From positions 88,117-152,116 of the forward strand of contig CAMPCD010000001.1 in the NCBI GenBank assembly GCA_946643435.1: a stretch of DNA of 64,000 nt, in the 5' to 3' direction. The position numbers and the translations under genes were made by a program. Source of the stretch: an uncultured bacterium. GTDB taxonomy: Bacteria > Bacillota_I > Bacilli_A > RF39 > UBA660. Shown one piece after another: positions 43,123-61,062 of the stretch (within the stretch, counting starts at the first letter, position 1; every line of letters begins with the position of its first letter). The notes beneath the pieces were generated by a model. The model saw only the letters and a list, made by a program, of their open reading frames with translations. It did not search any database and was not told where the DNA came from.

Positions 43123-44265
43123 TTATTTATTTTCTTCTTTTTGTTCTTCTTCAGGATTTTTAACTATCTTAACTACTATTTGATATATATCACTGAAATT
43201 AAATTCTTCAGTCTTTACTTCAATATTATTTTCAATAGCTAATTTAACTAATTCATTTATTGCTTTAGTCAATTCTCTTGGAGTATAAACATCCATGTTG
43301 ATTTTCTTTTCTTCCTCTTGTTGTGCAGCTTCAGATCCTTGAATTGGTATATCTAATTCATCATCTGTTTGTTGATCTTCTAAATCTACAAAATCTTCAT
43401 CAGATATTATGTTTTGTGTTTTCATTGGATCAAAACCAAATGATAATGTTGGATCTTCCATAGTTGCAGGATGATTTTCTAGATTGTTAAAAAATAAACT
43501 CTTTTTTGTGTTTTTATCATTAATTTTAGATCTATATTGATACTCTTTTGGTGTTATTGATAGATTAAAATCATCATCTTCTAGTAATAAATTAGATACA
43601 TCTATATCATTTCTAGAGTCTATATTAATTCCACCAGTTAGATTTTCTTCTTTTTTATAAGTACCTAATACTTTATCTATTTCATCTTCTACTTGTCTAA
43701 CAGTTAATTTATCTCTAATTATTTCATTAAGAATATCTACTTGTTTCATTTTATCAGTTAATCTTAATAAACTCTTAGCATGTTTAACTGATATCATATT
43801 CTTTTGTAATGCATCTTGTACTGCTTCATCTAATGATAATAATCTTATCTTATCATTTAGATTTGATTGAGTAGTTCCCATACGAGCAGCTAATTGATCA
43901 ATTGTTATATATCCTTTATCTAATAACTTTTTATATCCTCTAGCTTCATCAATAGGAGTTAAATCTTTTCTATGAATATTTTCTACTAAAGCTAATTCAG
44001 AAGACTCATTATCATCTATATCGCATATAATACAAGGTACTGATTGTAATCCAAGTAATTCAGCTGCTTTTAGTCTTCTTTCACCAGCTATTATTTCAAA
44101 TTTATCTTGTAATCTTCTGACAATAAGAGGTTGAACAATACCATGAGATCTAATAGATGAAGCTAATTCTTGTAATGATGATGTATCAAATTGAGTTCTT
44201 GGTTGAGCTTTATTAGGTACTAATTGGTCTACATTAATCATTCTAATTTGAGCTTCCATCTTCAT
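43123..44265 (-). CDS. parB: ParB/Spo0J-family chromosome partitioning protein with long acidic C-terminal extension; no adjacent ParA
   Basis: ParB box II GERRLKAAELLGL. HTH region. 380 aa. Immediately downstream of rsmG. Confidence 0.85.
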   Translation of the reverse strand: MKMEAQIRMINVDQLVPNKAQPRTQFDTSSLQELASSIRSHGIVQPLIVRRLQDKFEIIAGERRLKAAELLGLQSVPCIICDIDDNESSELALVENIHRKDLTPIDEARGYKKLLDKGYITIDQLAARMGTTQSNLNDKIRLLSLDEAVQDALQKNMISVKHAKSLLRLTDKMKQVDILNEIIRDKLTVRQVEDEIDKVLGTYKKEENLTGGINIDSRNDIDVSNLLLEDDDFNLSITPKEYQYRSKINDKNTKKSLFFNNLENHPATMEDPTLSFGFDPMKTQNIISDEDFVDLEDQQTDDELDIPIQGSEAAQQEEEKKINMDVYTPRELTKAINELVKLAIENNIEVKTEEFNFSDIYQIVVKIVKNPEEEQKEENK

Positions 44266-54056: not shown

Positions 54057-54093
54057 CTTTTTGTTATAGTACCCATTGAAAAGGAGATGTATT

Positions 54094-54543
54094 ATGAAAA
54101 ATTATGTGATAACTGGGGATACTTTAGCTATATTACCCTACTCTACAGGATCTATTATATATGAGACTAATCAAACACTTATAATTAATAAATTACCTAA
54201 TAATATAATTAGTTATAACTGTTTATTATTTGGTTCTTCCTATAAAGGCAGAGTTAAAGGTTCTAAGAATCTAATTGGATTTAAGTATAAAAATCCTATT
54301 AGTATTAATGATAGTTTAATATTCTTTCCCACTACTTCACCTAGATTAAAGGAATGTAGCTGGATTAATTATATTAATGTTAAAAAAGTTGATTTTATTA
54401 ACAATATAAATATGACTAAAATACAGTTTATTAATGATTTAGAATTGAAATTTCATATATCAAAAAATATAATAAATAATCAAATTAATAAATCTTATAT
54501 TTTGAATAGCAAAATTCACATGAATTTAGGCTATTTTGTGTAA
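54094..54543 (+). CDS. ComK-family protein (competence transcription factor-like)
   Basis: Similar to staphylococcal/bacillary ComK across its length: YVITGDTLAILP, CLLFGSSYKGR, IFFPTTSPRLKECSWINYINVKKV, TKIQFINDLELKFHISKN. Start at Met with AAAGGAGA SD. Confidence 0.55.
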   Translation: MKNYVITGDTLAILPYSTGSIIYETNQTLIINKLPNNIISYNCLLFGSSYKGRVKGSKNLIGFKYKNPISINDSLIFFPTTSPRLKECSWINYINVKKVDFINNINMTKIQFINDLELKFHISKNIINNQINKSYILNSKIHMNLGYFV

Positions 54544-57700: not shown

Positions 57701-60283
57701 ATGGATGATAAAGAATTAGAAATAAATGAAGTAGAAGAAGTTCAAGAATCTGATGTCGAAGATGATGAACTTGAAGAAGAAACTGTTTCAACTTCTGTAG
57801 CAAATGATGAAATGGTTGATAATGATATTGTTAAAGAAATTAAAGATTCATTTTTACAATATTCAATGTCAGTTATAGTATCTCGTGCTTTACCAGACTT
57901 AAGAGATGGTTTAAAACCAGTTCATAGAAGAATACTATATTCAATGTATGAAAATGGTATTACACCTGATAAACCACATAGAAAATGTGCTACTACTGTA
58001 GGAGCCGTTATGGGTGCTTACCATCCACATGGTGATACATCTATATATGATGCTTTAGCTAGAATGGCTCAAGATTTCTCATATAGATATCTATTAATAG
58101 ATGGACATGGTAACTTTGGTTCTATGGATGGTGATGATCCTGCAGCTATGCGTTATACTGAAGCAAGATTAGCAAAATTATCACTAGAAATGACTAGAGA
58201 TATTAAAAAAGATACTATTGATTTTGTAGATAACTTTGATGCTACAAGAAAAGAACCAACAGTATTACCTTCAAGATTTCCTAATATATTAGTAAATGGT
58301 ACTATGGGTATTGCTGTAGGTATGGCAACAAATATACCTCCACATAATTTAAGAGAAGTAGTAAATGGATGTGTTGCTGTATTAGACAATCCTGATATTG
58401 ACTTAGATGAATTAATGACTATAGTTAAAGGTCCAGATTTTCCTACAGGAGCAATAATACTTGGAAATTCAGGTATTAGAAAAGCTTATGCTACAGGAAA
58501 AGGTACAATAACTATAAGAGGTAAGGTAGAAATACAAGAAAAACAAAATCATAGTTTAATTGTTATTACTGAAATACCTTATGGTGTTAATAAGAAAGAA
58601 TTACAAACAAAAATAGCTGAATTAGTTAGAGATAAAGTTATTGAAGGTATATCTGATTTACATGAAGAAACAAACCTAGAAAATGGTATTAAAATTGTTG
58701 TTACATGTAAGAAAGATGCTAATGCTAATGTAATTTTAAATAATTTATATAAATCAACACCATTACAAATAACATATGGTATTAACTTCTTAATGCTTGA
58801 TAATGGTATTCCTAAAACATTAGGACTAAAAGATATATTAATTAAATATACAAATTATCAAAAAGAAATTATTATTAGACGTACAAGATATGATCTAGGA
58901 CAAGCTGAAAATAGAGTACATATTTTAGATGGTGAAATAATTGCTATCAATAATATTGATGATTTCGTACATATTATTCGTGGTTCTAGAACAGATCAAG
59001 AAGCTAAGAGTAGATTAGAAGAAAAATATGGACTAGATAATATTCAATCTGAAGATATCTTACAAATGCGTTTAAGAAAGTTAACTGGTCTTGAATTAGA
59101 TAAAGTCACTGAAGAACGTGATGGATTATTAAAGGATATTGAAATGTATAATGCTATATTAAACTCTGATGAAATGGTAAGAGATGTTGTTAAGAAAGAA
59201 TTATTAGATATTGCTAATAGATTTGGTGATGAAAGACGTACTCATATTGATATGACTGCAATTGATTATATTGAAGATGAATCATTAATACCTGAAGAAA
59301 ATATAATAATTACATTAACTGATAAAGGTTATATTAAGAGATTATCATCTGATACATACCGTGAACAAAATCGTGGTGGTGTAGGAGTTAAAGGAATGAC
59401 TACTAACGAAGATGATTATGTTAAATTCTTAATTAATTCTTCAACTCATGATTATGTATGTATTTTCACTAATAAAGGAAGAATTTATAGATTAAAAGGA
59501 TATGAAATACCTGAATATGGTAGAAATGCTAAGGGATTACCAATTATTAACTTAATTCAAATAGAAAAAGATGAAAAAGTTAATGCAATAATCAATGTTT
59601 CACGTGAAACATCAGCTCAATATACAGTATTTGCTACTAAACAAGGTATTATTAAGAAGACTCCTAACTCTGAATTTGAAAATATTAGAAAGTCTGGTAA
59701 GATTGCTATTACGTTACATGAAGGTGATGAATTAATAGATGTTAAGTTATCAGATGGAAAACAAAATATTATTTTAGGATCTACAACAGGTAAGATTGTA
59801 GTATTTGATGAAAATGAAATTAGACCAATGGGTAGAACAGCTACTGGTGTTAAGGGTATTAACCTTGATGGTGGTGAATGTACTGGTATGGAAGTTGGAA
59901 CTGACGATGATAACTTATTAGTTATTTCTCGTAATGGATACGGTAAGCGTACATTTGTAAAAGATTATCGTAAGACTAAACGTGGTTCTAAAGGCGTATT
60001 AAGTATTAAAGCTACTGATAAAACCGGTGGTATGATAGCTCACAAGATTGTAGATAACGATAAATCATTATTAATTGTAACTGAACAAGGTATGATTATT
60101 AGAATAAGTGTTGATTCAATATCTCAATTAAATAGAGTTACTCAAGGTGTAAGATTAATTAATCTTAAAGATGATCAATATGTTTCTACAGTAAGTATTA
60201 TTTCTAAGGAAGAAGAACCTGAAGAAATGGTAGATGAAACTACAGAATCATCTAATGAAGAAATAAAGGAAGAGACTGAATAA
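57701..60283 (+). CDS. gyrA: DNA gyrase subunit A
   Basis: Active-site region [35 protein letters not shown]-terminal beta-pinwheel. 860 aa. Confidence 0.95.
59595..59612. promoter_or_regulatory. parS site inside gyrA coding sequence
   Basis: ATGTTTCACGTGAAACAT, an exact match to the four intergenic copies. Encodes NVSRET. Confidence 0.7.
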
Positions 60284-60296
60284 TCTCTTCTTTTTT
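60269..60296 (+). terminator. gyrA rho-independent terminator
   Basis: GAAGAGA-ctgaataa-TCTCTTC hairpin overlapping stop, then T6. Confidence 0.65.
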
Positions 60297-60300
60297 ATTA

Positions 60301-60322
60301 CAATGTTTCACGTGAAACATTG
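60301..60322. promoter_or_regulatory. parS site 1 (CAATGTTTCACGTGAAACATTG)
   Basis: Perfect 22-bp palindrome containing 16-bp parS consensus TGTTTCACGTGAAACA. Confidence 0.8.
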
Positions 60323-60343
60323 TAATGTGAATAAAATATAATA

Positions 60344-60367
60344 TATATGTTTCACGTGAAACATATG
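60344..60367. promoter_or_regulatory. parS site 2 (CATATGTTTCACGTGAAACATATG)
   Basis: Perfect 24-bp palindrome with parS core. Confidence 0.8.
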
Positions 60368-60384
60368 AGAAAATAAAAATAGTA

Positions 60385-60414
60385 TTTCTAATGTTTCACG
60401 TGAAACATTAGAAA
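60385..60414. promoter_or_regulatory. parS site 3 (TTTCTAATGTTTCACGTGAAACATTAGAAA)
   Basis: Perfect 30-bp palindrome with parS core. Confidence 0.8.
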
Positions 60415-60482
60415 TGATACAAATAAATTAAACTAACAAATGAATTATTTATTAATTTTTTTTTACTTATATATGTGACAAG

Positions 60483-60506
60483 TCAATGTTTCACGTGAAA
60501 CATTGA
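60483..60506. promoter_or_regulatory. parS site 4 (TCAATGTTTCACGTGAAACATTGA), abutting ffs promoter
   Basis: Perfect 24-bp palindrome ending 10 bp upstream of the -35 TTGTTA. Confidence 0.8.
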
Positions 60507-60515
60507 TAATAATTC

Positions 60516-60544
60516 TTGTTAATAATTAATAAATAAGATATAAT
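60516..60544 (+). promoter_or_regulatory. Promoter of SRP RNA gene
   Basis: TTGTTA(60516-60521)-17 nt-TATAAT(60539-60544). G at 60551 about 7 nt downstream. Confidence 0.6.
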
Positions 60545-60550
60545 TAAATT

Positions 60551-60627
60551 GCGCAACGATTATATTATAAACTGGTCAGGACAGGAATGTAGCAGCCACA
60601 TTAATCCCTAGTCGTGTGCGCTTTTTT
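60551..60627 (+). ncRNA. ffs: Small signal recognition particle RNA (4.5S/scRNA-type, domain IV hairpin)
   Basis: GGTCAGGACAGGAATGTAGCAGCC matches the SRP domain IV consensus GGUCAGGUCCGGAAGGAAGCAGCC with a GGAA tetraloop closed by ACA/TGT. Terminal helix GCGCAACGA/TCGTgTGCGC followed by T6. Located before tadA-dnaX as scr is in Bacillus. Confidence 0.65.
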
Positions 60628-60642
60628 AGTGAGATGATTTAT

Positions 60643-61062
60643 ATGGATAAATATATTGAAGTACTTATAAAATTATCTGACAAAGCTGAATCTATAGGTG
60701 ATATACCAGTAGGAGCAATTGTTGTAAAAGATAATAAAATAATTGGAAAAGGTTACAATAATCGAATAAAAAATAAAAAAGTTATAAGTCATGCAGAAGT
60801 GAATGCAATAATTGATGCTTCAAAGAAACTTAATGATTGGAGGCTTAATGATTGTGATTTGTATGTAACACTTGAACCATGTGATATGTGTTACGAAATA
60901 ATCAAACAATCACGTATTAAAAATGTTTATTATTTACTTGAAAATAAAGAAAAACATAAGTACAACAAAACAAATGTTCATATATTGAAATATAGTGAAG
61001 AAACAGTAGATTTATATAGAAAAAAACTTAGTAATTTCTTTGCTAAAAACTTAAATAGATAG
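60643..61062 (+). CDS. tadA: tRNA-specific adenosine deaminase TadA
   Basis: CDA zinc motifs HAEVNAI...PCDMC. Start moved to MDKYIEVL because ORF-track start (GTG 60616) lies inside the SRP RNA terminator helix. Confidence 0.8.
   Translation: MDKYIEVLIKLSDKAESIGDIPVGAIVVKDNKIIGKGYNNRIKNKKVISHAEVNAIIDASKKLNDWRLNDCDLYVTLEPCDMCYEIIKQSRIKNVYYLLENKEKHKYNKTNVHILKYSEETVDLYRKKLSNFFAKNLNR

Follow-up and report, generated by a model that had tools for sequence, protein, structure and literature searches.

What does a tight cluster of perfect parS sites between gyrA and the signal recognition particle RNA gene ffs represent, and which protein reads it? Both questions arise from a 64-kb stretch of DNA (~25% GC) from an uncultured bacterium, hereafter the window, which is a replication-origin region. 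On the minus strand, to the left of the origin, are rpmH, rnpA, yidC, jag, trmE, gidA, rsmG and a ParB-family gene. The plus strand to the right carries dnaA, dnaN, a comK-like gene, recF, gyrB, gyrA, ffs, tadA, dnaX, ybaB and recR. The cumulative GC skew reaches its minimum and turns at 50-52 kb, and the parS array lies ~9 kb to the right of the dnaA start, near this turn. DnaA-box matches are scattered and form no cluster near the array. The small comK-like gene (54076-54543) occupies a position between dnaN and recF that is conserved across the clade; its orthologues in L001 and L204-L215 match Pfam ComK, and an NCBIfam search of the window gene returned no match. Feature coordinates are collected in Table 1, where loci from other genomes carry L numbers.

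Table 1. Features of the window and of related loci. Positions refer to the window unless a locus is named; NBS, Noc-binding site.
Feature	Position	Strand	Basis or remark
ParB-family gene, 380 aa	43123..44265	-	Adjoins rsmG; apparent Noc-lineage paralogue
dnaA	51318..52739	+	ORF order; Pfam labels of same genes in L001; marks origin region
gyrA	57701..60283	+	Pfam DNA_topoisoIV (E 8e-160) and DNA_gyraseA_C x6
parS copy 0	59595..59612		In gyrA coding sequence, peptide NVSRETS; perfect 18-mer, palindrome not extended
gyrA intrinsic terminator	60265..60296	+	Hairpin 60265-60294 across stop codon, then U-run
parS copy 1	60303-60320 (18-mer)		30-bp perfect palindrome 60297..60326
parS copy 2	60347-60364 (18-mer)		22-bp perfect palindrome 60345..60366
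parS copy 3	60391-60408 (18-mer)		32-bp perfect palindrome 60384..60415
parS copy 4	60486-60503 (18-mer)		24-bp perfect palindrome 60483..60506; 9 bp from ffs -35
ffs promoter, predicted	60516..60544	+	-35 TTGTTA 60516-60521, 17-bp spacer, -10 TATAAT 60539-60544
ffs (small bacterial SRP RNA)	60541..60635	+	Rfam RF00169, 59.7 bits (gathering score 40), E 1.3e-10
Interleaved parS and NBS	L127 6060-7320; L139 2760-3410; L021 2034-2102; L203 6060-6131; L210 17420-17540
NBS in DnaX linker	L021 3793; L130 8243; L132 8223; L137 7898; L150 6226; L135 4047
Canonical recognition helix (Q173, N178, K179, R201, R204)	L210-L213, L215		At least one NBS in 5/5; parS kept
Divergent recognition helix	Window (D178, K201, K204); L209 (N173, G178)		NBS in 0/2; parS kept

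The 18-mer ATGTTTCACGTGAAACAT occurs in five perfect copies in the window, four in the gyrA-ffs spacer and one within gyrA, at centre-to-centre spacings of 708, 44, 44 and 95 bp. All five match the 16-bp consensus TGTTNCACGTGAAACA at 16 of 16 positions, and the 64 kb contain no further site with two or fewer mismatches to it. Dinucleotide shuffles yielded a mean of 0.04 chance matches to the 18-mer when up to three mismatches were allowed, and none of 100 shuffles reached five. A preliminary description of this DNA had recognised the canonical chromosomal consensus core and counted four perfect 18-mers in 206 bp. The core and all four copies are upheld, but the fifth copy, at 59595 within gyrA, had been overlooked, and the palindrome lengths it gave (22, 24, 30 and 24 bp) are corrected by measurement to 30, 22, 32 and 24 bp, in order. 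On sequence grounds, the sites are confirmed as canonical parS, present in more copies than first noted. L124, a separately assembled strain of this species with a spacer 97% identical to that of the window, has the same five sites, and the array is therefore not an assembly artefact. The copy inside gyrA is also kept in L124 and in the sister species L209 and L210, at positions of -669 to -696 relative to the gyrA stop codon.

The surroundings of the array are well defined. The intrinsic terminator of gyrA folds at -11.4 kcal/mol (z = -2.79), a stability equalled in 0/200 shuffles; a separate hairpin scan also picks it out, and the first parS palindrome starts directly after it. On the other side, the predicted ffs promoter scores 10/12 in a consensus scan of the spacer, and its elements (a TTGnnn -35, ~17 bp and a TAtAAT-like -10) are conserved 5′ of ffs in 13 species. 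Judging from the promoter position, the mature 5′ end of ffs is probably near 60550. Pfam and Rfam matches bear out the flanking genes originally named, gyrA and ffs, and the original placing of the array directly against the ffs -35 was roughly right, the last palindrome ending at 60506, 9 bp upstream. The four intergenic sites thus appear to fill an untranscribed gap of ~220 bp between the gyrA terminator and the outward-firing ffs promoter. The program-called tadA ORF opens at a GTG that overlaps the ffs 3′ end (region 60616-60660); translation probably begins a few codons further on, at one of the ATGs there. L174 offers a parallel case, with a parS ATG (ATGTTTCACGTGAAACAT = MFHVKH) chosen by the ORF finder as the tadA start.

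Palindromes of this kind could be structural elements rather than protein sites, acting as REP-like repeats, as RNA hairpins or terminators, or as cruciform-forming DNA. Two of the parS copies do score as terminator-like hairpins, and the flanks lengthen the palindromes well past the 16-mer, to a non-random extent (P about 1.5e-6). This reading is nevertheless highly improbable given the full 16/16 match to parS, the confinement of the copies to one origin-proximal locus, and the presence of gyrA's own terminator upstream of the array. No other recurrent GC-containing palindromes were found in the window. Dispersed REP-like copies, named in the preliminary description as evidence that would count against parS, are also missing: no equivalent occurs elsewhere in the 64 kb or in the ~20-kb origin loci of relatives.

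Nor is the lengthening of the palindromes peculiar to this locus. Among 309 parS sites at unrelated loci (the 120 listed, L004-L123), 21% have at least three extra pairs versus 1.9% expected, and some extend by up to 16 pairs, with flank sequences that are specific to each site. Among 121 unique parS sites of the clade, 31% have at least four extra pairs (1.3% expected). Flanks vary from site to site and from one sister species to another, and a C>T change in L124 shortens the palindrome of copy 1 from 30 to 20 bp, a broken arm that is evidently tolerated. We considered the long arms as functional elements and rejected this, since the extension is general across phyla, variable in sister species and broken in L124. 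Template-switch correction of quasi-palindromes is a mutational process, and the occurrence of extension in parS across phyla indicates that the arms are probably a by-product of the perfect palindromic core, generated by such correction.

The sites are shared by relatives. Metagenomic loci were chosen solely on GyrA C-terminal similarity (54-98% identity), and the 80 obtained fall into 25 species-like groups. Between two and ten parS sites, mostly perfect, follow gyrA in every locus with at least ~600 bp of sequence there, except L160, which is of odd composition. The 5 kb upstream contain no parS except the common copy internal to gyrA. Some contigs stop short here, L106 only 42 bp beyond its third parS and L214 243 bp beyond gyrA; repeated sites at the gyrA-ffs locus may break short-read assemblies, and the copy number of a truncated locus is a minimum. 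In these relatives ffs always lies 3′ of gyrA, and the sites take one of two layouts around it. In the first, parS sites lie between gyrA and ffs, with the nearest ending 33-47 bp before the start of the ffs model in 13/18 groups. In the second, that of the commonest human-gut group, 8-10 parS sites are spread over ~1.1 kb downstream of ffs, and none precedes the promoter. Of the ten sites in L093, four belong to a true tandem repeat of 44 bp and three fall within the DnaX linker, in frame; L106 also has true unit repeats (42 bp).

Comparison with L124 and with sister species shows that the parS cores stay perfect while the spacers diverge, which argues for selection on the sites. The spacing itself is not fixed, being 41 bp in L124 where the window has 44 bp. 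The source names of the clade ('Bacilli bacterium', 'Erysipelotrichales bacterium') and the sporulation genes nearby identify it as a group of spore-forming, Erysipelotrichales-type Bacilli. The array is thus best described as an inherited feature of a clade of low-GC gut Bacilli, variable in copy number, with 2-10 sites around ffs. All three intergenic parS sites of L209 (17450-17546) are the same asymmetric variant, TGTTACACGTGAAACA, while its gyrA copy is canonical; the identity of the three suggests concerted change within the array. One locus labelled uncultured Muribaculaceae (L041, CAYOWI010000005.1) has seven parS sites and could have signified a linkage of parS and ffs across phyla. 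We rejected it as such, because its low GC (0.28) and an ffs nearly identical to that of L093 mark it as probably a mis-binned member of the Bacilli clade.

The proximity of copy 4 to the ffs promoter raises the possibility that it is mainly an operator, with ParB bound upstream of the -35 modulating ffs transcription. In a variant, ParB would spread to one side only, blocked on the other by the strong ffs promoter. Either could coexist with a centromere role. In 13/18 groups, the nearest parS lies 8-14 bp (26 bp in L188) before the conserved -35, and ParB spreading from parS affects a neighbouring promoter in Streptococcus pneumoniae (PMC4488948). Yet the A/T-rich gap between parS and the -35 varies in length (8-26 bp) without phase-locking, the commonest human-gut relatives have their whole array downstream of ffs, and no ffs was found beside parS pairs outside the clade in 117 unrelated loci, searched with nhmmer and a core motif at limited sensitivity. 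Common ancestry and the available non-coding space would also explain the adjacency. We therefore regard both versions, taken together, as improbable, and a regulatory role of copy 4 on ffs as a possible but weakly supported one.

The array had initially been described as unusually tight for a chromosome, a view contradicted both within and beyond the clade. Relatives have their 2-10 sites at this same locus (L160 excepted). Further, a scan of one genome per species across 185,579 species, for two consensus parS sites 10-40 bp apart, returned at least 120 loci from many phyla; the matches listed include Actinomycetota, Bacteroidota, Pseudomonadota, Clostridia, CPR and others. At least three perfect parS sites fall within 250 bp in 23/120 listed loci (four in three of them), and several listed loci have 7-10 sites in 1-2 kb. 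Very dense parS arrays, reaching 10 sites per 1-2 kb, are thus common in nature, and model systems are looser. We also considered helical phasing of the sites. Across 75 parS-parS spacings, the Rayleigh R is 0.23-0.27 at 10-10.5 bp and 0.03 at 11 bp; we rejected phasing because this periodicity is weak and inconsistent, and L124 changes 44 bp to 41 bp.

The array itself therefore adds little, and what could matter is its mismatch with the sole ParB-family protein encoded nearby. The product of the gene at 43123..44265 has both the CTPase and the helix-turn-helix domain of a ParB (Pfam ParB_N, 8.6e-32; HTH_ParB, 4.7e-28), including the CTP box GERRLKAA and the motif ENIHRKDL. Its closest solved relatives are Noc proteins (7ng0, 1.4e-51; Bacillus subtilis Noc, 5.6e-45), with Spo0J structures scoring behind them (1e-42 to 3.3e-41; 6sdk, 3.3e-41). 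The best NCBIfam model is likewise that of Noc (TIGR04285), at 244.4 bits, below its cut-off of 315. The gene adjoins rsmG, as noc does in B. subtilis.

Noc function needs an N-terminal amphipathic membrane helix (PMC4331003). This helix is absent from the window protein, whose first residues (MKMEAQIR...) align to the start of the ParB box, with no leader of ~25 residues. The protein starts five residues before the conserved domain, without an N-terminal ParA-interaction peptide, and has ~180 extra, largely acidic C-terminal residues compared with Noc. Its homologues are 360-400 aa long (one of 541 and one of 309), with an acidic C-terminal extension that ends in a small conserved domain, and their genes always adjoin rsmG and never parA.

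Four residues set the binding specificity of these proteins: R173, T179, A184 and G201 in ParB versus Q, K, K and R in Noc, in the numbering of Caulobacter ParB (Jalal et al. 2020, PMC7383237). In the deep mutational scanning of that study, parS-specific variants invariably had R173, and T or S predominated at 201 in dual-specificity variants; according to the same study, one permissive Lys is enough (PMC7383237). At positions 173, 179, 184 and 201, the window protein reads Q-K-S-K. Across 120 full-length homologues the family consensus is Q, K, S/T/N and R, with Q173 in 107/120, K179 in 119/120, R201 in 108/120 (R or K in 118/120) and R173 in 0/120. The combination typical of a canonical ParB, R173 with G, S, T or C at 201, is absent from the window protein (Q173, K201). 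The gene had at first been taken to encode the cognate ParB of the array. Its product instead appears to be a Noc-lineage ParB paralogue with NBS-type specificity residues, neither a canonical ParB nor a typical Noc, and as the binder of the array it looks doubtful.

Other components of a partition system were sought in the same DNA. No ParA was found in the 64-kb window, either by tblastn with a B. subtilis Soj sequence (E > 1) or as a deviant Walker A motif (KGGxGK[ST]), and no SMC or ScpAB is encoded in the window. In most Firmicutes, spo0J sits in this origin region. A canonical ParB gene is absent from the window and from the ~20-kb origin loci of seven relatives, and no soj-spo0J pair lies within ~10 kb of the ParB-family gene in the loci of relatives.

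A Noc-like protein would be expected to read Noc-binding sites. The window has no match to the NBS ATTTCCCGGGAAAT with two or fewer mismatches, and a single match with three is at chance level. Relatives have 34 perfect NBS in 269 kb of ~27%-GC DNA, and in their gyrA-ffs-tadA spacer these are interleaved with parS (Table 1). Mixed parS-NBS neighbours can come within 22-27 bp of each other, centre to centre, while at least 35 bp separate any two neighbouring parS sites in the clade. In six species, a conserved 22-bp NBS palindrome, AATTATTTCCCGGGAAATAATT (NYFPGNN), lies in frame in the variable DnaX linker, where the surrounding protein is divergent. L203 also has the AATTATTTCCCGGGAAATAATT palindrome in dnaX, with an uncertain frame assignment. 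In L093 (7874-7979), three in-frame parS sites, 45 bp apart, replace the NBS in the DnaX linker, and the window DnaX lacks the linker segment that bears the NBS.

Across the loci that span both the protein gene and the array, the window included, the presence of NBS tracks the integrity of the recognition helix (5/5 versus 0/2; n = 7, Fisher p about 0.05), with parS present in all seven. Of the Noc-like recognition helices, that of L209 (N173, G178), the locus with the asymmetric parS variants, is the most divergent. The simplest reading, which we favour, is that NBS are read by the Noc-lineage family and parS by a canonical ParB whose gene lies elsewhere. The covariation among these seven would fit equally well a single protein that lost the reading of NBS and kept that of parS.

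Such a single reader deserves consideration. The Noc-lineage protein itself would read parS, with parS and NBS both recognised in relatives, parS alone in the window species, and no separate ParB. It is, after all, the sole ParB-family gene in the 64 kb and in the ~20-kb origin loci of seven relatives. Its missing membrane helix (PMC4331003) and its score below the NCBI Noc cut-off make it an untypical Noc. In many relatives the two motifs share one array, sometimes at 22-27 bp, as if interchangeable, and where the helices have diverged, in the window and L209, parS is retained and NBS are missing. Further, K171, conserved in ParB and Noc, is T, I or M in this family, and the rules derived from Caulobacter ParB may not transfer. 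Against this, Q173 with R or K at 201 is the NBS-reading combination, the scanned variants specific for parS invariably had R173 and those of dual specificity mostly T or S at 201 (PMC7383237), and two distinct, perfectly conserved motifs are most simply explained by two readers. On balance, we consider a single Noc-lineage reader somewhat unlikely.

Its most specific form, in which the helix-less paralogue is the centromere protein, reads parS despite Gln173 and serves both parS and NBS in relatives, we hold to be unlikely. As part of that proposal, the window species would have narrowed to parS after the changes at 178, 201 and 204 and the loss of its local NBS. To our knowledge, every known parS reader has Arg at 173. 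Should the proposal be true, the family would supply a natural example of a ParB/Noc intermediate, dual-specificity or reverted, such as deep mutational scanning suggested evolution had bypassed.

We return, then, to a canonical ParB as the reader. Judged from its sequence and context, the array is very probably a genuine, selected chromosomal centromere of five consensus parS sites, ~9 kb from oriC, with a canonical ParB from elsewhere in the genome as its most likely reader. On the identity of that reader alone, a canonical ParB with Arg at the position that reads guanine 1, encoded outside the window, we lean modestly in favour. There is precedent in Staphylococcus aureus, where spo0J is not known to be adjacent to noc.

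From the published biology of ParB (PMC7053999, PMC9449133, PMC4488948), we infer how such a centromere might work here. Each parS would act as a loading gate, where a ParB dimer with bound CTP would close as a clamp and then move off by sliding along the flanking DNA. Side-by-side gates would make loading faster and ParB more concentrated locally, giving rise to one origin-proximal partition complex that would recruit SMC-ScpAB and mark the origin for segregation. Placement between a terminator and an outward-firing promoter would keep RNA polymerase from sweeping the parS sites. Since no ParA occurs in the 64 kb, the system may be ParA-independent, as in S. pneumoniae, where parS/ParB works without ParA (PMC4488948).

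The interest of this locus thus lies in its combination of features. In a clade of abundant gut Bacilli, perfect parS sites, often interleaved with perfect NBS, lie at one locus beside ffs, and the sole origin-encoded ParB-family gene is Noc-like, with neither a membrane anchor nor a ParA partner. Such a clade represents a natural test bed for the evolution of ParB/Noc specificity, and for possible cooperation of the two clamp systems on a shared loading zone.

How, then, does this locus compare with known systems? With the Noc of B. subtilis and S. aureus, the window protein and its family share an rsmG-adjacent gene, nearest structures that are those of Noc, and the Q173/K179/R(K)201 pattern. 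The abundance of perfect NBS (ATTTCCCGGGAAAT) in relatives of the window likewise matches the Noc-NBS system. Unlike Noc, the window protein has no N-terminal membrane helix, has a long acidic C-terminus and scores below the NCBI cut-off, and the NBS of its relatives are concentrated beside parS at the origin instead of being distributed chromosome-wide.

A second comparison is with plasmid centromeres, to which the array had been likened. The sopC centromere of the F plasmid is built from a 43-bp unit in 12 direct repeats, and SopB binds a 16-bp inverted repeat within each unit (PMC3177203). Both are series of ParB-family palindromes with a period of ~43-44 bp, and L093 (44 bp) and L106 (42 bp) even have unit repeats. 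However, the window repeats the palindrome core only, with unrelated spacers and spacings of 44, 44 and 95 bp (41 bp in L124), so that there is no fixed-length unit of site plus spacer. Its context is chromosomal (dnaA-dnaN-recF-gyrBA), its motif is the chromosomal parS, and it lacks an adjacent sopAB-like operon and any ParA in 64 kb. The plasmid analogy is accordingly abandoned, and the likeness to sopC appears superficial.

The closest counterparts are the parS clusters of other chromosomes. In Caulobacter crescentus (parS1-7), the five strongest sites lie within 5 kb, two of them on a 260-bp segment (PMC5815017); Corynebacterium glutamicum (parS1-10) has ten sites in 35 kb, mostly intergenic, one of which is sufficient (PMC7083940); and Pseudomonas aeruginosa (parS1-4) has a four-parS cluster nearest oriC (PMC4368675). 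The window differs from these characterised clusters in being denser, with four sites in 206 bp and a minimum spacing of 44 bp, in having no adjoining parAB and no canonical ParB or ParA nearby, and in that the arrays of its relatives are interleaved with NBS. With these three and with S. pneumoniae, it shares the same 16-bp consensus, a position close to the origin, and multiple redundant sites on one chromosome arm. Its density appears to exceed that of the characterised model systems we checked, yet is not rare in nature, and the array is best regarded as an ordinary origin-proximal parS cluster, for which exceptional status is not supported.
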